DNA of 64,000 bases, from the NCBI RefSeq assembly GCF_030013205.1, contig NZ_CP122648.1; one strand, written 5' to 3'. The DNA is from Escherichia coli (GTDB taxonomy: Bacteria; Pseudomonadota; Gammaproteobacteria; Enterobacterales; Enterobacteriaceae). Shown in pieces: positions 9,235-23,797 of this stretch. The stretch's first letter is position 1; the number at the start of each line of letters is the position of its first letter. The position numbers were made by a program, and so were the translations under genes. The notes beneath the pieces are model-generated. The model was not told the DNA's origin and made no database searches. It saw nothing but the letters and a program-made list of their open reading frames with translations.

Positions 9235-10602
9235 TTAATAAAATAGCGTGATAGTGGCAATCATATTCACCACGAAACCGACTGCCATGGGGATCGCTGT
9301 CCGCTTCACTACCGCAAAAGGCGAAACGCCTGCAATTCCTGACGTAACGACCACCACCGCAGTAATCGGCGAAACAGCGCGCGCTAGCGTCGTGGCAAAA
9401 TGCATCGGCATAATCATTACAACCGCTGGTACATGTAGTCCGGCTGCGATATTCGGAATAAGACTGGCAAATGACATAAACGGCGCATTGCCTGAGCCCA
9501 TCACAATGGCACAAATGGCAATGACCAGCGCCATAATAATCATCACGCCAATACCGCCCAGACCAGAATGCTCCGCCCCCCTGATAACCGCATCGACAGT
9601 GCCAATCGTCGTTAAGCCTTTCGCAAATATTTCACCCGCGACCACCAGCGTTACCACGTTGGCAAACTGCGTACCCATGCCATCAAAAAACGCCTGCACA
9701 TCGTCCATTGTTTCGCGCAAGTTATGCTTGCGGAAGAACTCAACAAACATCGTCACCGTCAAACTCAGTAACATCACCACCACCAGATGCAGTTCTGACT
9801 GCATCAGCCCGACGTGGGCAAGGAACAGCGAGCCGAGCATCAGGATTAACGGCATCACCGGTAAAATGGCGTAATAGAGCGGCGGGACATTATCGAGAGC
9901 TTTTTGCTCTGCCTGTTCGTGATTGATATTTTTATCTTTTTTGTCGAAAGCGCGTTGCACGAAAAAGTGGGAGATCGCCACCGAGATAATGACGCAAGAG
10001 GCGACCGGAAGCTGGTAGTGGAAGAAGTAAGTGGCAATTTTCATTCCTGCGACCTGGGCAGCAAAAATGGAGTTCGTTTCCAGAATCCCCCACTCAATGG
10101 ACATGGTGGTTGCGATAACCGCCACCGCAGAGAGACTACTTACTCCCAGACTCACCAGCGTCGGAAATAAGGTGACCATCAGCAACATACCCAGACCGGA
10201 GGCGCTGGTAATAAACTGCGCCATGATTTGGCCGATGACGTAAGTTGCCGACAGAATAATATACGGCGAGCGAATGAGTTTTAACGGGCGGCTTAACAAG
10301 CTCACCATCGCGCGACTTGCCCCTATGCGCTCCATATAGCGGGCATAACCGCCCACTGCCATAATCGACAGCCCCAATCCGGCAATGCGGTTGGACAGCA
10401 TGCGCAGGATTTCATTATAAATATCGACGATCAAGTAGCCGCTGCTTTTGGCGGGATCGAGCACACCACCGAACCCTAACCAGACACCGCACATCATCAG
10501 GAAGATACCTGCGGCAGCCAGCACCACCTGAGGTTTGTAGTTTTTCAGGATCAAATAGCCCATCGTAATTAATACGATGACAGATATAATTATGCCGAAC
10601 AT
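9235..10602 (-). CDS. dcuD: C4-dicarboxylate transporter family protein DcuD
   Basis: 455 aa from [25 protein letters not shown] (internal ATG; track ORF starts at an upstream TTG); polytopic membrane protein. Confidence 0.9.
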
Positions 10603-12896: not shown

Positions 12897-14387
12897 ATGA
12901 GTACTACAACCCAGAATATCCCGTGGTATCGCCATCTCAATCGTGCACAATGGCGGGCATTTTCCGCTGCCTGGTTGGGATATCTGCTTGACGGTTTTGA
13001 TTTCGTTTTAATCGCCCTGGTACTCACCGAAGTACAAGGTGAATTCGGGCTGACGACGGTGCAGGCGGCAAGTCTGATCTCCGCAGCCTTTATCTCTCGC
13101 TGGTTCGGCGGCCTGATGCTCGGCGCTATGGGTGACCGCTACGGGCGTCGTCTGGCAATGGTCACCAGCATCGTTCTCTTCTCGGCCGGGACGCTGGCCT
13201 GCGGCTTTGCGCCAGGCTACATCACCATGTTTATCGCTCGTCTGGTCATCGGCATGGGGATGGCGGGTGAATACGGTTCCAGCGCCACCTATGTCATTGA
13301 AAGCTGGCCAAAACATCTGCGTAATAAAGCCAGTGGTTTTCTGATTTCCGGCTTCTCTGTGGGGGCCGTCGTTGCCGCTCAGGTCTATAGCCTGGTGGTT
13401 CCGGTCTGGGGCTGGCGTGCGCTGTTCTTTATCGGCATTTTGCCAATCATCTTTGCTCTCTGGCTGCGTAAAAACATCCCGGAAGCGGAAGACTGGAAAG
13501 AGAAACATGCTGGTAAAGCACCAGTACGCACGATGGTAGATATTCTCTACCGTGGTGAACATCGCATTGCCAATATCGTAATGACACTGGCGGCGGCTAC
13601 TGCGCTGTGGTTTTGCTTCGCCGGTAACCTGCAAAATGCCGCGATCGTCGCTGTTCTTGGGCTGTTATGCGCCGCAATCTTTATCAGCTTTATGGTGCAA
13701 AGTACGGGCAAACGCTGGCCAACGGGCGTAATGCTGATGGTGGTCGTGTTGTTTGCTTTCCTCTACTCATGGCCGATTCAGGCGCTGCTGCCAACGTATC
13801 TGAAAACCGATCTGGCTTATAACCCGCATACTGTCGCCAATGTGCTGTTCTTTAGTGGCTTTGGCGCGGCGGTGGGATGCTGCGTAGGTGGCTTCCTCGG
13901 TGACTGGCTGGGAACCCGCAAAGCGTACGTTTGTAGCCTGCTGGCCTCGCAGCTGCTGATTATTCCGGTATTTGCGATTGGCGGCGCAAACGTCTGGGTG
14001 CTCGGTCTGTTACTGTTCTTCCAGCAAATGCTTGGACAAGGGATCGCCGGGATCTTACCGAAACTGATTGGCGGTTATTTCGATACCGACCAGCGTGCAG
14101 CGGGCCTGGGCTTTACCTACAACGTCGGCGCATTGGGCGGTGCACTGGCCCCAATCATCGGCGCGTTGATCGCTCAACGTCTGGATCTGGGTACTGCGCT
14201 GGCATCGCTCTCGTTCAGTCTGACATTTGTGGTGATCCTGCTGATTGGTCTGGATATGCCTTCCCGCGTTCAGCGTTGGCTGCGCCCGGAAGCATTGCGT
14301 ACTCATGACGCTATCGACGGCAAACCATTTAGCGGTGCCGTGCCATTTGGCCGCGCCAAAAACGATTTAGTCAAAACCAAAAGTTAA
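12897..14387 (+). CDS. nanT: sialic acid:H+ symporter (MFS)
   Basis: 496 aa from [22 protein letters not shown] (internal ATG; track ORF starts at an upstream GTG). Confidence 0.95.
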
Positions 14388-15124: not shown

Positions 15125-16457
<1,333 letters not shown>

Positions 16458-16516
16458 AACTTAGTTCGTTTTAAAGATTCTGCAGACACTGTCTGCAGAA
16501 TTCGAAACCGCTGAAA

Positions 16517-17629
16517 TTAACGGCGTCTATAGCCTTCCTCTAGCACCGCCTGTGTTCGAACGAGTTCATCCGCGAGTCGTTTTTCATCAGGTAGTTGCAT
16601 CTTATATTCGCTCGCCAGAACGGTGTTAGGCAAACCAGCCAGTGCATAATACGCTTCGCCGGCTCCTTTCTCTGCACAGAGAACCAGACCGATGGGCGGA
16701 TTTTCATCCGGTAGTGTCCAGTGCTCTTTGGCGTAGTTGAGATACATATTCATCTGTCCGGCATCGCTATAGCTGAATTTGCCCACTTTTAGATCGACGA
16801 TTAGCAGGCAGCGTAAACGGCGGTGGAAAAACAGCAGATCGACACGAAACCAGTTGTCATCAATGCGTAACCTTCGCTGTCGACCAACAAAGGCAAAATC
16901 ATCCCCAAGTTCCAGCATGAAATCCATCAGGTGGTTGATCAGCGCCTCCTCAAAATCGGATTCTGAGTATTCATCTTTCAATTCCAGAAATTCGAGCACA
17001 AAGGGATCGCGTATCGCCTGCTGCGGAAGAATATGCGTCTCGGTAGGAGCGTGTTGTTGCAGCATGGCTGATTTGTCATGTGACAGTAGTGTCCGCTCAT
17101 AAAACTGGGTCGCAATTTGTCGTTCGAGCTGACGAGCAGACCAGCCACAGCGGAGTGTCTCTTTCTCATAAAAGCTGCGAGCATCAGCTTTTTTAACAGA
17201 AAGCAAACGGACGTAAGTGGACCAGGGCAGGGGGAAGGATTTGGCGAGTTGCGCTAAATGGCAAGATTCTCCAGACACAGTCTGGAGAATTGTGGGGGTG
17301 AATTGTGCAGACAGTGTCTGCACAATTTCAATTCTTTGAAAACAAATATAAAAATTCTTAAACTGCCATAAATTCCTGGTGGAAAATCCACGCTTATACC
17401 TTAGACTTAAATCCTTTGATAGTCGCTTGATTAGCTGCGCACCATACGCAGCCCTGGCCTCGCCACCTTGTTCAAATTCGACAATTCGTCGGCCAATTTC
17501 CCAGTACGTCGCGGTCATTAACGCGTTAACGCTACGTACCGTTTCCGTTCGGGCGCTATCGACCAGATGAATAATGCCGTCGTGGATTTGCTGGTAGCCT
17601 GCTGTGGTTCCTTCTGAGAGCGATTCCAT
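16517..17629 (-). CDS. yhcG: DUF1016 / YhcG-family putative PD-(D/E)XK nuclease
   Basis: 370 aa; C-terminal RVDLLFFH...LLIVDLKVGK resembles a PD-(D/E)XK core; contains an internal 12-residue tandem repeat encoded by palindromic DNA (see findings). Confidence 0.8.
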   Translation of the reverse strand: MESLSEGTTAGYQQIHDGIIHLVDSARTETVRSVNALMTATYWEIGRRIVEFEQGGEARAAYGAQLIKRLSKDLSLRYKRGFSTRNLWQFKNFYICFQRIEIVQTLSAQFTPTILQTVSGESCHLAQLAKSFPLPWSTYVRLLSVKKADARSFYEKETLRCGWSARQLERQIATQFYERTLLSHDKSAMLQQHAPTETHILPQQAIRDPFVLEFLELKDEYSESDFEEALINHLMDFMLELGDDFAFVGRQRRLRIDDNWFRVDLLFFHRRLRCLLIVDLKVGKFSYSDAGQMNMYLNYAKEHWTLPDENPPIGLVLCAEKGAGEAYYALAGLPNTVLASEYKMQLPDEKRLADELVRTQAVLEEGYRRR

Positions 17630-17812
17630 TATCTGTCCCTTAATATGGCGCAGTGTTGAATAATGGAATCAGCTATACGCCGGGCATCTGCCGGTAACAA
17701 TCCAGATGTGCGTATTACATTGGTTTTCTTCAGATTATGCGAGGCGCTTTCCAGAACGAAAGGAGAATTTCAGCGCCGACTCTTTTCTGAGGAGGCGGCG
17801 CTGGGACAGAGC

Positions 17813-19243
<1,431 letters not shown>

Positions 19244-22200
19244 TTACTGCGCCTGCACGCGCAACTCTGCTGCGCTACGACTACGGTGACCCAGCAGTGC
19301 TTTTACATCACTGGACTTCGGTTTAACCAGCGCAAATTTAGTGGCGAAGGTTGACCAGTTCGCCAGAATCTCTTCACCGCGCTGAGAACCGGTATGCTGA
19401 ACATGCTCGGTGATAAGACCGCGCAGATGCTCTTCATGGATCGCCAGATCGTCAACGCTTAAGACCTCGACCAGTTCCGGGTTAACGCGTTTGCGGAAAT
19501 CGCCGCTTTCATCGAGAACGTAAGCGAAGCCGCCGGTCATGCCCGCGCCGAAGTTAACGCCGGTTTTACCCAGAATACAGACAATACCGCCCGTCATATA
19601 TTCACAGCCGTTGTCGCCAATGCCTTCTACCACGGTGATAGCACCGGAGTTACGCACGCCGAAACGTTCACCCGCGCGGCCTGCGGCATACAGACGACCT
19701 CCGGTCGCGCCATACAGGCAGGTGTTGCCGATAATGCTTGCTTCATGGCTGCGGAAGGCTGAGCCAACCGGAGGACGAATGGCGATTAAGCCGCCCGCCA
19801 TGCCTTTACCGACATAGTCGTTGGCATCACCGGTCAGGTACAGTTCCACGCCGCCCGCGTTCCACACACCGAAGCTCTGGCCTGCGGTGCCGTTGAAGTA
19901 CGCTTTGATCGGATCGGCTGCCAGACCCTGATCGCCGTGCGTCTGGGCGATATAGCCTGAAAGCGACGCGCCGACAGAACGGTCGGTGTTGCGAATATCG
20001 AACCAGAAGGTTTTGCTCTGACGCTCATCGACAAACGGTTTTGCCTGTTGCAGCAACTGTGCGTTCAGCAGGCCGTTATCAAACGGCGGGTTGTTTTCGG
20101 TACAGTAGAGCGCCTTACCTGGATGCGGCTCAGCGGTCTCCAGCAGTTTCGACAGCGCCAGTTTCTGCTGTTTGGCGGTGAAACCGTCCAGCTCTTTCAG
20201 CAGGTCGGTGCGACCAATCAGATCCACCAGACGCGTTACCCCCAGCTGTGCCATCAGCTCGCGGGTTTCACGGGCGATAAACTCAAAGTAATTAGTCACC
20301 TTGAACGGCAGGCCGTGATAGTGATTCTTACGCAGTTTGTCATCCTGAGTTGCTACACCCGTCGCGCAGTTGTTCAGGTGGCAAATACGCAGATATTTAC
20401 AGCCGAGCGCCACCATCGGACCGGTGCCGAAGCCGAAGCTTTCTGCGCCGAGAATCGCCGCTTTGATGATATCGACACCCGTTTTCAGGCCGCCATCGAC
20501 CTGCAAACGAATTTTATGACGTAAACCGTTGGCAACCAGCGCCTGTTGGGTTTCCACCAGGCCGAGTTCCCACGGACAGCCTGCGTATTTCACCGATGAA
20601 AGCGGACTTGCGCCGGTGCCGCCATCATAGCCTGCGATGGTGATTAAATCGGCATAAGCTTTCGCCACGCCAGTCGCGATGGTGCCTACGCCCGGTTCGG
20701 AAACCAGCTTCACGGAGATCATCGCTTTCGGGTTAACCTGCTTGAGGTCGAAAATAAGCTGCGCTAAGTCCTCGATAGAGTAGATATCATGGTGCGGCGG
20801 CGGGGAGATCAGCGTCACTCCGGGCACCGAATAGCGCAGTTTGGCGATGTAAGGCGTGACTTTATCGCCCGGTAACTGACCGCCTTCGCCCGGCTTCGCG
20901 CCCTGGGCGACTTTAATCTGAATGACGTCGGCATTGACCAGATACGCCGGAGTAACCCCAAAGCGACCGGAAGCCACCTGCTTGATGCGCGACACTTTGT
21001 TGGTGCCGTAGCGTGCCGGATCTTCGCCGCCTTCACCGGAGTTAGAGTTGCCGCCGATGCTGTTCATCGCTTCAGCCAGCGCCTCGTGGGCTTCCGGGCT
21101 TAACGCGCCGATAGACATCGCAGCGGTATCGAAGCGTTTAAACAGTTCGCTTGCCGGTTCAACATCAGCAATGTTGACCGCGTTTTCACCCGGCGTAATT
21201 GCCAGCAGATCGCGCAGCGTGGTTGCCGGACGCTCATTAACCAGCTTCGCGTATTCCTGATAGTCGCTGTACTCGCCGCTTTGTACCGCCTGTTGCAGCG
21301 TGCGCACCACGTCCGGGTTGTAGGCGTGGTATTCGCCGCCGTGCACATATTTCAGCAGGCCGCCCTGGCTGATGGGCTTACGCGCCAGCCAGGCACGTTT
21401 CGACAGATTCAGCAGATCCTGCTGGAAGTCTTCAAAGCTTGCCCCGCCAATGCGGCTGACCGCGCCCTGGAAGCACAGGCCCACTACATCATCGTGTAGA
21501 CCGACCGCTTCAAACAGTTTCGAGCAGCGGTAAGAGGCGATGGTGGAGATGCCCATTTTGGACATGATTTTGTACAAGCCTTTGTTGATGCCGTTACGGT
21601 AGTTGAGCATCACGGTACGATAATCTTTGGCAATCGCGTGGGTGTCTACCAGGCGGCCCAGCGTTTCATAGGCAAGGTACGGATAAATAGCCGTCGCACC
21701 GAAGCCCAGCAACACGGCGAAATGGTGCGGATCGCGGGCGCTGGCGGTTTCGACGATGATGTTGGCATCGCAACGCAAGCTTTGATCGACCAGACGGGTC
21801 TGGATCGCGCCAACCGCCATCGGGGCTGGAACCGGCAGGCGATCTTTAGCGATATTCCTGTCGGAGAGCACCAGCAGCACAGTGCCGCTACGTACCATTT
21901 TTTCAGCTTTGTCGCACAGCTCTTTGACCGTCGCTTCGAGCGTGGTTTTGGTGACGTCAAAGGTGATATCCAGTGTATCTGCGCGGTAGTGCTCCTCTTT
22001 CATCGTCGTGAGCTGTTTGAAATCGGAGTAGAGCAGAATCGGCGATTTAAAACTTAAACGGTGCGCCTGGCCCTCTGCTTCACAGAAGACGTTCATTTCA
22101 CGCCCTATGCTGGTGGCGAGCGACATAACATGCGCTTCACGCAGTGGGTCGATTGGCGGGTTGGTGACCTGGGCAAATTGCTGGCGGAAGTAATCGTAAA

Positions 22201-23797
22201 TAATGCGCGGCTGACTGGAGAGCACGGCGAATGGGGTGTCGTCGCCCATCGAACCGACCGCTTCCTGACCGTTTTCGCCCAGTACGCGAATTACGGAGTC
22301 CAGCTCTTCCGCGCTGTAGTTAAACTGTTTCTGGTAGCTGGCAAGTGTGTCGTCGTCCAGTTCGCGGCTACCCACTTCTTCATCGGGCAGATCTTCAAAC
22401 GGTACCAGTCGGCGGACGTTTTTCTCCATCCACTCTTTATATGGATGGCGGCTTTTCAGATCGTCATCAGTTTCTGCCGAGTGCAGAATGCGCCCACTGC
22501 GAGTGTCGATCACCATCAGTTCGCCTGGCCCGACGCGGCCTTTTTCGACCACTTCGTCAGGCTGATAATCCCAGATACCGACTTCAGAGGCGCAGGTGAT
22601 GAGCTTATCTTTGGTGATGACGTAGCGCGCCGGACGCAGACCGTTACGGTCGAGGTTACAGGCGGCAAAACGACCATCGGACATCACGATGCCCGCCGGG
22701 CCATCCCACGGCTCCATATGCATGGAGTTAAAGTCAAAGAAGGCACGCAGTTCCGGGTCCATATCCGGGTTGTTCTGCCAGGCGGGTGGTACTAACAGAC
22801 GCATGGCGCGGATGATATCCATCCCGCCTGCCAGCAGCAGTTCCAGCATGTTATCCATGGAACTGGAGTCAGAGCCGGTTTCGTTGACGAACGGCGCGGC
22901 GTCGTGCAGGTCAGGGATCAGCGGCGTCTGGAATTTATAGGTACGCGCACGCGCCCATTGGCGGTTGCCGGTGATGGTGTTGATTTCACCGTTATGCGCC
23001 AGGTAGCGGAACGGCTGCGCCAGCGGCCAGCGCGGTACGGTGTTAGTGGAGAAGCGCTGGTGGAACAGGCAAATGGCCGATTCCAGACGCAGGTCCGCAA
23101 GATCCAGGTAGAAGCGCGGTAGATCCGCCGGCATACACAGACCTTTATAGATGTTCACCAGATTCGACAGGCTACAGACGTAGAAGTCTTTGTCGGCTTC
23201 GAGACGCTTTTCAATGCGGCGGCGGGCGATAAACAGACGGCGCTCCATATCGCGCGGACGCCAGCCTGCCGGGGCGTTCACAAAAATTTGCTCAATGCGT
23301 GGCAGAGAGGAGAGGGCGATTTCACCCAGCACGCCTTCGTTGGTGGGGACATCACGCCAGCCCACAATCGATAAGGTTTCGCGTTGCAGCTCTTCTTCAA
23401 CGATGCGGCGTGCGGCAGCGGCGAGTTCAGGATCTTTATTCAGGAAGAGCATCCCGACGGCGTAGTTTTTCGCTAAACGCCAGCCGCGCTCCTGCGCAAC
23501 GATGCGAAAAAAGCGATCCGGTTTTTGTAACAGCAAGCCGCAACCGTCACCGGTTTTACCATCGGCGAGAATCGCGCCACGGTGCTGCATGCGGGCCAGT
23601 GCGTGTATTGCAGTACGCACTACCTTGTGGCTAGGTTCGCCTTCTATGTGGGCGATCAGGCCGAAACCACAGTTATCCCTCTCAAGGGATTTATCGTACA
23701 ACATATCGTGAACCTCCCCCAGGCTCTGCGGGAACCCCACTTCCGAACCGCTGCGCACGGGCACAGAAAGAGCGTGGCGACGGGGGTTGCGTGTCAT
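19244..23797 (-). CDS. gltB: glutamate synthase large subunit
   Basis: about 1517 aa from [20 protein letters not shown] (track ORF extends 5 codons further upstream); amidotransferase Cys in ...[11 protein letters not shown]... Confidence 0.95.

Follow-up and report, generated by a model that had tools for sequence, protein, structure and literature searches.

The island-free gltD-yhcG junction of Escherichia coli and a recurrent palindrome in DUF1016 nuclease genes

Introduction

The Yhc fimbrial operon is described as "sporadic" and "under-represented" in E. coli by Wurpel et al. (2013, PMC3559732), who in the retrieved passages of that paper ask whether it is ancient and was then mostly lost or is a recent acquisition. 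The retrieved passages of del Canto et al. (2017, PMC5216030) report the operon solely from phylogroup A strains, and in those of both papers (PMC3559732, PMC5216030) the disruption of yhcE by IS5 is limited to K-12. The neighbouring gene yhcG encodes a protein whose nuclease domain was predicted to be Holliday-junction-resolvase-like (Kosinski et al. 2005, PMC1189080). Genes of its family, DUF1016, often adjoin type I restriction-modification genes or integrases. Neither a solved structure nor a functional study of the YhcG/DUF1016 family was found in the literature searched. Palindromic DNA within coding genes is described for the Rickettsia palindromic elements, which are protein-coding and selfish, 100-150 nt in length, and found in many unrelated genes of one genus (Ogata et al. 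2000/2002, cited in PMC4316617).

Here the gltD-nanQ interval is described in a 64-kb stretch of E. coli DNA (the window), where gltD lies close to yhcG. The main finding, an absence of the Yhc genes, is an ordinary one; the palindrome within DUF1016 genes is the item that merits follow-up.

The gltD-yhcG junction in the window

The window carries gltB (19244-23704, window annotation), gltD (17813..19231) and yhcG (16517..17629) on the minus strand. The product of gltD is the 472-aa small subunit of glutamate synthase, identified from the open reading frame list, a TIGR01318 match (E 1e-270) and the RefSeq annotation of an identical genome. The 370-aa reading frame that follows is assigned to yhcG because it contains the domains DUF1016_N (PF17761, E 7.6e-43) and YhcG_C (PF06250, E 5.2e-56). 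On the plus strand, nanR-nanA-nanT-nanE-nanK precede nanQ (yhcH; 15993..16457; NF040884, E 2e-70, and annotation), which forms the right-hand anchor of the variable interval. The strain has gltBD, yhcG and the nan operon in intact form.

The gltD stop codon (17813-17815) and the yhcG start codon (17627-17629) enclose a spacer of 183 bp (17630..17812, minus strand), the distance given in an initial annotation made from the sequence alone and borne out by the coordinates. Only one open reading frame of at least 40 aa touches this spacer, and it is mechanical, running antisense into the 3' end of gltD (17663-17980, plus strand). It starts within the spacer, would encode 105 aa and is unannotated in the identical RefSeq genome.

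The same annotation had taken gltF and yhcADEF to be missing, and they are: K-12 queries for GltF, YhcA, YhcD and YhcF gave no tblastn match in the 64-kb window (for YhcD at E <= 1e-3), and the 7.08-kb segment that holds these genes in K-12 shares just a 27-nt palindrome with the window. Of the components of a Yhc operon, the window has no usher gene (PapC_N / Usher / PapC_C, YhcD), no PapD-like chaperone (YhcA) and no DUF1120 subunits (GltF, YhcF). The strain is without Yhc fimbriae and GltF, like most E. coli, because its haplotype is island-free. The surrounding 2901-bp region is 100% identical in 15 complete genomes and differs by a single-base gap in 3 more. These near-identical genomes come nearly all from porcine isolates, O139:H1 and ETEC-labelled strains among them, and the 2.9-kb region is contiguous in 2543 genomes.

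Two other features of the window lie outside this interval. At 1621-2079, between mdh and degS, the identical RefSeq genome has an annotated IS200C-type tnpA. A gene for a DcuC-family C4-dicarboxylate transporter (9235-10602) lies between sspB and nanR; it is another presence/absence difference nearby, because in ST131 (locus L003) nanR is directly beside sspB.

Comparison with K-12

The gene order given for K-12 in the initial annotation is correct, MG1655 having gltB-gltD-gltF-yhcA-yhcD-yhcE(IS5)-yhcF-yhcG-nanQ(yhcH). The distance given there, about 5 kb between gltD and yhcG, is too low; the actual gap is 7210 bp, or about 6.0 kb when IS5 is subtracted. Homology to K-12 on the gltD side (97.4% identity) stops at window position 17811, two bases past the stop codon, and on the yhcG side it starts at 17756, which corresponds in blastn to position 13700 of the K-12 locus (L001). 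Between these breakpoints the window has 54 bp on the minus strand (17757..17810), including a hairpin, and K-12 carries 7080 bp (L001 6620-13699). The 54-bp segment gave no blastn-short match in the 20-kb K-12 locus, and because it lacks a K-12 counterpart the short form is not derivable from K-12 by simple deletion. On the K-12 alignment 17630..17812 holds no sequence homologous to gltF or yhcA-F, a point that the initial annotation had singled out for checking. The gltD and nan flanks are 94-100% identical to K-12, with divergence concentrated beside the junction and in the repeat block of yhcG.

The K-12 segment deviates in base composition, as a genomic island does, with a GC content of 44% (32% in the gltD-gltF spacer) compared with 57% in gltBD. 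The MG1655 annotation has neither an integrase nor a tRNA at its borders, just IS5 inside yhcE, and related 27-bp palindromes at L001 6632-6658 and 14970-14998 bracket the island plus yhcG, not the island alone. A reading of the segment as a classical genomic island was rejected, since it has neither integrase nor tRNA and clean direct repeats are lacking.

Right after gltD, the island-bearing and B2 haplotypes have a palindrome (K-12, L001 6620-6700; E. marmotae, L137 6950-7010; also L013 11420-11490). Its stem is that of unit 2 of the Pseudocitrobacter faecalis yhcG, and yhcG-like bases come next; the flank in E. marmotae reads GAATCTTGCCCATTAAC. When the post-gltD DNA of K-12 was compared with yhcG by tblastn, a weak match with in-frame stops was obtained (E 0.003-0.01 in a tiny search space). 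A homologous segment also follows gltD in a Pseudocitrobacter genome that has no yhcG. From these likenesses it is plausible that an older yhcG copy left this remnant after gltD in the island-bearing and B2 haplotypes. The island haplotypes appear to derive from a yhcG-containing arrangement, because a yhcG-type palindrome and flank sit after gltD.

Haplotype frequencies in E. coli

Haplotypes were counted among 5426 complete E. coli genomes. The short gltD-yhcG junction, detected with a 131-bp probe across it, is present in 3139 of them (58%), including O157:H7. The K-12 island (4957-bp probe, at least 80% covered) is found in about 1120 of the 5426, many of which are laboratory derivatives of K-12. 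A third state, in which yhcG is missing and gltD is directly beside nanQ, accounts for 947, for example ST131. Roughly 4% of the 5426 genomes are outside these three counts; two strains examined from this residue, SX12 and KH_005, have IS1-associated deletions. In the gltD-nanQ state of ST131 the spacer is 67 bp long (L003 9019-9085), and a single palindrome links the gltD flank to the nanQ flank.

The short junction is the majority state, and not strain-specific, because it occurs in 3139 of the 5426 genomes. The suggestion of a strain-specific deletion in the initial annotation falls on this count, on a 95.7% identical spacer in E. albertii and on a layout common to other genera. The absence of Yhc genes here is ordinary, and the sporadic distribution of Yhc was already known from published work.

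The locus in related species and genera

A GltD search of genome contigs gave, among the matches listed, E. albertii and many distant genera, and neither Salmonella nor E. fergusonii; loci of Salmonella, Citrobacter koseri and P. faecalis were reached through contigs encoding the protein, and E. fergusonii lies outside the comparison. The spacer of the window is 95.7% identical to that of E. albertii and 92.9% identical to that of another Escherichia lineage, the identity falling to 72% for P. faecalis and to 57-60% for Salmonella and C. koseri. In the E. albertii type strain the window-type spacer precedes a truncated yhcG; in a second species-level representative of Escherichia it precedes a full one. 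The order gltD-(181-209 bp)-yhcG is found in Salmonella enterica, C. koseri and P. faecalis. The short form is collinear with the arrangement in these related genera, because the spacers share the hairpin position and the yhcG-proximal blocks.

Clusters of the gltF-yhcADEF type also occupy the gltD-nan interval outside E. coli (L135-L139, L014, L015). E. marmotae and some E. albertii have them in the K-12 orientation, and they are inverted in a Citrobacter, Enterobacter asburiae and E. cloacae. YhcD homologs are 82% (E. albertii) and 67% (E. marmotae) identical in amino acid sequence to the K-12 protein, about 56% in Citrobacter, Kluyvera and Klebsiella oxytoca, and 41-49% in Enterobacter. E. 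marmotae has the K-12 architecture, in which gltD is followed by the palindrome and yhcG-like bases (...GGCGAATCTTGCCCATTAAC), the island and the yhcG upstream block, and then by a decayed yhcG, a palindrome and nanQ. The two agree at about 90% across the right junction and at just 67% in the usher, which indicates, from sequence comparison, that the E. marmotae/K-12 island is mosaic. In lineage L007 the spacer is of the window type and the yhcG allele is K-12-like. Since the same interval is occupied in several taxa, presence or absence of the cluster is an old mosaic polymorphism across Escherichia.

The alternative offered in the initial annotation, that the short form is the ancestral state before an insertion in K-12, was largely right but too simple: outgroup collinearity favours the short form as the older layout, but the insertion is not specific to K-12, clusters being present in other taxa as well. 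These comparisons largely support the short form as the older layout, though not necessarily as that of the deep ancestor.

A codBA-like pair (Transp_cyt_pur and amidohydrolase domains; cytosine permease/deaminase) precedes nanQ in Salmonella and in a Citrobacter, placed after yhcG in L086/L087 (7219-9739) and after the yhc cluster in L139 (2842-5362). The gltD-nanQ interval is a multi-module hotspot, because this pair is inserted there too.

Explanations for the short junction

The 183-bp spacer is very probably an intact island-free haplotype, old and in the majority in E. coli, and not a deletion scar. K-12 and about one fifth of sequenced E. coli carry an alternative haplotype, with 7.08 kb of low-GC DNA in place of the hairpin-bearing 54 bp. 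The longer segment consists of a probable yhcG-derived palindrome remnant, a beta-class chaperone-usher operon (gltF-yhcADEF) and, in K-12, IS5. A deletion peculiar to this lineage, removing about 7 kb from an arrangement like that of K-12, has precedents at this locus, both in the IS1-mediated losses of SX12 and KH_005 and in palindrome-to-palindrome deletions of E. albertii and phylogroup B2 strains. However, the junction holds 54 bp that are absent from K-12 and no remnant of the island, the spacer is collinear with those of E. albertii, Salmonella, C. koseri and P. faecalis, and the junction is found in 58% of genomes. Such a deletion is very improbable, and the 54-bp segment together with outgroup collinearity effectively refutes it. 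That gltD was joined to yhcG by an artefact of the assembly or of the window has next to no likelihood, as 18 independently completed genomes have the 2901-bp region at 100% identity, 2543 have it contiguous, and the junction occurs in 3139.

Secondary loss by allelic replacement, in which an island-bearing ancestor received the island-free haplotype of another E. coli through crossovers in gltD and in yhcG/nan, is more credible than a deletion but still unlikely. The island haplotype is old and common to Escherichia species, homologous recombination can restore an island-free allele, and the divergence between K-12 and the window is concentrated beside the junction and in the repeat block. 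The locus is also mosaic, as seen in the junction shared by K-12 and E. marmotae (about 90%, compared with 67% for YhcD) and in the mixture of spacer and allele in L007. Replacement is nevertheless needless for a majority haplotype, and the gltD and nan flanks show the ordinary identity to K-12 of 94-100%. Even if it had occurred, the sequence found here would still be the old island-free allele.

The spacer hairpin and the yhcG upstream block

The spacer has a GC-rich hairpin 3' of gltD (17771..17803, minus strand), which RNA folding shows as an 8-bp stem and a 17-nt loop with a 3-bp inner helix. Its arms, at 17771-17778 and 17796-17803, are the inverted repeat cagcgccg/cggcgctg seen near the gltD stop in the initial annotation. 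The stem begins 10 nt past the gltD stop codon, and 7 of its 8 pairs are G-C. The gltD-sense RNA of the surrounding 81 nt (17735-17815) folds at -23.2 kcal/mol, modestly better than shuffled sequences (z = -1.8). A GC-rich stem soon after a stop codon is what an intrinsic terminator has; the short loop (3-8 nt) and immediate U-run of a terminator are lacking, the tail being the U/C-rich AAAUUCUCCUUUCGUUCU. A scan for consensus promoters and terminators called neither the spacer hairpin nor a yhcG promoter, and its sole terminator-like calls were one intragenic palindrome (antisense strand) and a weak 7-bp stem at 17050-17066. Rfam 15 gave no match at E <= 1 to either strand of window positions 16300-18000, which cover the spacer and the palindromes.

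Orthologous spacers have a hairpin at the same position. The stem is CAGCGCCG..CGGCGCTG in Escherichia and CAGCGCCGCC..GGCGGCGCTG, a longer version of it, in P. faecalis, and it differs in Salmonella and C. koseri (GGC(C/T)CCCC..GGGGAGCC). The hairpin at 17771-17803 most likely ends or stabilises the 3' end of the gltBD transcript, a reading as terminator or 3' hairpin that is adopted mainly because its position is conserved across genera.

The remainder of the spacer (17630..17756, minus strand) is homologous in blastn to K-12 L001 13700-13827. The blocks TTCTGGAAAGC, ATGTAATAC, GGATTG and GCGTATAGCTG are kept in all seven spacers aligned with MAFFT, including the right junction of K-12. These approximately 127 bp presumably contain the promoter and leader of yhcG.

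YhcG and its palindromes

YhcG is a DUF1016 / PD-(D/E)XK nuclease, and in the window allele alignment shows it with two 12-aa units encoded by palindromes. It matches the PADLOC candidate defence system PDC-S02 (E 2.3e-133). Many PDC-S02 fragment models stop at YhcG residues ~101-116, at the palindrome, which suggests that reading frames truncated there are common in genomes. In an AlphaFold model with a mean pLDDT of 78, the peptide encoded by the palindrome lies in a low-confidence stretch, residues 101-120 having a pLDDT of ~50.

The first intragenic palindrome (17300..17328, minus strand) is AAATTGTGCAGACACTGTCTGCACAATTC and encodes EIVQTLSAQF; the second (17265..17291, minus strand) is AATTCTCCAGACTGTGTCTGGAGAATC and encodes ILQTVSGES. 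Folded together, the two hairpins have a z of -6.8. A further copy lies between the convergent genes yhcG and nanQ (16477..16503; GAATTCTGCAGACAGTGTCTGCAGAATC), with RNA fold z values of -3.3 and -4.3 on the two strands. Where 0 matches to the pattern CAGAC-N3-GTCTG are expected in the 64 kb, there are just three, two of them inside yhcG and one between yhcG and nanQ. All three occurrences of CAGACNNTGTCTG in the 64 kb lie in or beside yhcG (0 expected).

The 12-aa units have the form I-x-Q-T-x-S-x-x. One copy is present in Salmonella and C. koseri, two in the window and P. faecalis, and three in K-12. The unit copy number explains much of the length range of 349-382 aa in E. coli YhcG. The window and K-12 alleles of yhcG diverge by 10%, mostly within the unit block. 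Among E. coli, YhcG variants of 307-382 aa have one to three units (36-39 bp each) or deletions starting from the unit (17220-17340, codons ~97-135).

Palindromes also mark the ends of larger losses. In the E. albertii type strain (L006 3115-3500) yhcG is cut to its first ~300 bp, and a hybrid palindrome combines the internal unit with the 3' copy; on this sequence evidence the truncation would clearly be a palindrome-to-palindrome deletion. The decayed yhcG of E. marmotae contains a hybrid unit, one palindrome joins the gltD flank with the nanQ flank in B2 strains, and shortened YhcG proteins stop or resume at the unit.

The palindrome across the DUF1016 family

In the first 11 DUF1016 genes examined, from Enterobacteriaceae, Burkholderia, Pseudomonas, Paraburkholderia, Aeromonas, a Klebsiella plasmid and Hymenobacter, the strongest hairpin of the gene is at the same alignment position in every case (11/11; 35-100% amino acid identity). 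The palindrome is 25-29 bp long and lies 18 nt upstream of the conserved Trp codon in the L-S-W-S-H motif of DUF1016_N. Equivalents are found in DUF1016 genes of Pseudomonadota, Bacteroidota, Actinomycetota and Deinococcota (loci L086-L147).

An anchored test was made on these earlier genes and 39 further homologs from viral contigs, which together gave 37 distinct sequences. The anchor was the protein motif alone: the codon lying six residues ahead of the conserved Trp was located, and its first base was taken as the centre of the palindrome. Of the 37 distinct genes, 23 have complementarity at 10 or more of 14 positions; when the centre is placed elsewhere in these genes, at least 9 are complementary in 0.49% of cases and at least 11 in 0.056%. 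Most of the failures were genes in which additional residues separate the unit from the motif. Further genes scored 13/14 (Curtobacterium and Rhodococcus), 12/14 (Legionella), 10/14 (Deinococcus) and 9/14 (Meiothermus).

The stems vary by changes on both arms, which alter the encoded amino acids. Among 22 anchored sequences, 10 of the 14 pairs have changed on both sides, and the covariation score is 0.658, compared with 0.194 in shuffles (0 of 500 reach it); slid controls of the same 22 sequences pair at 25-37%. The figure of 88% paired for this set is biased, as the sequences were picked for pairing, and the unfiltered anchored test is the fairer measure. Mismatches of the G.U and A.C types are equally frequent (8 and 8) and so favour neither an RNA-level nor a DNA-level function, nor either strand. 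The literature search returned no paper linking DUF1016 with a palindrome, and the palindrome has no Rfam family. A subset of DUF1016 genes has a second palindrome of 28-30 bp near the 5' end (L095 nt ~314-343, L121-L124), one example being TCGAGGCGGCGCGCAAGCGCGCCGCCTCGA, which encodes IEAARKRAAS. A selfish element like those of Rickettsia was considered and rejected, as the DUF1016 palindrome is not dispersed, has a fixed position in the family and consists of units of 25-29 bp.

It is quite possible, if a little short of probable, that the gltD-nanQ interval is rearrangement-prone through the yhcG palindrome, an undescribed hairpin or cruciform element kept by selection whose copies serve as indel breakpoints. 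A link with expression, or with what the Holliday-junction-resolvase-like nuclease acts on, is conceivable, and the indels of yhcG and of the yhc island would have their breakpoints at local copies of the palindrome. Alternatively, the palindrome may maintain itself neutrally, through hairpin-templated (quasi-palindrome) correction in a structurally permissive linker.

Significance of the locus

K-12 is an atypical reference at gltD-yhcG, the island-free junction being the older layout, and gltF, once assigned with gltBD, belongs to a sporadic fimbrial operon that is missing from most E. coli. The base-precise junctions of the three common haplotypes are usable as typing markers, and the gltD-nanQ interval is a long-lived hotspot common to Escherichia species. 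The conserved coding palindrome could give a handle on a widespread, uncharacterised, defence-associated nuclease family. It would be an example of constraint at the nucleic acid level, or of self-perpetuating palindromes, shaping protein sequence.

Comparison with known systems

The spacer hairpin resembles an intrinsic terminator or 3'-stabilising hairpin in its GC-rich stem just after the last stop codon and in keeping its position while its sequence changes. It differs in its 17-nt loop, the lack of a clean U-tract, a modest z and its being uncalled by the scan. Deletion, duplication and template-switch mutagenesis at hairpins and quasi-palindromes are established replication-slippage mechanisms. 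The locus is like hairpin-mediated or quasi-palindrome-mediated deletion in that the endpoints of yhcG truncations, the gltD-nanQ join and the unit copy variants fall in palindromes; the likeness is one of coinciding endpoints alone, and the right boundary of the gltF-yhcADEF island is not at a palindrome.

The yhcG gene of the window has both Pfam domains of the YhcG/DUF1016 nucleases and matches the PDC-S02 models. Here it is a solitary, chromosomal gene in a conserved place between gltD and nanQ, and is a candidate defence gene. With the Rickettsia palindromic elements the DUF1016 palindrome has in common that palindromic DNA stays in frame within a structurally permissive region of a coding gene. 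Unlike them, it has no copies in the window away from yhcG and occupies one fixed site in one gene family across several phyla.

The closest comparison is with the published presence/absence polymorphism of Yhc (PMC3559732, PMC5216030), which in the retrieved passages concerns the same locus and the same polymorphism. Those passages do not describe the junction, whereas here it is base-precise, shared with E. albertii and collinear in Salmonella, Citrobacter and Pseudocitrobacter. Added to what they contain are a count of the gltD-nanQ state and the presence of clusters in the same interval of E. marmotae and E. albertii.
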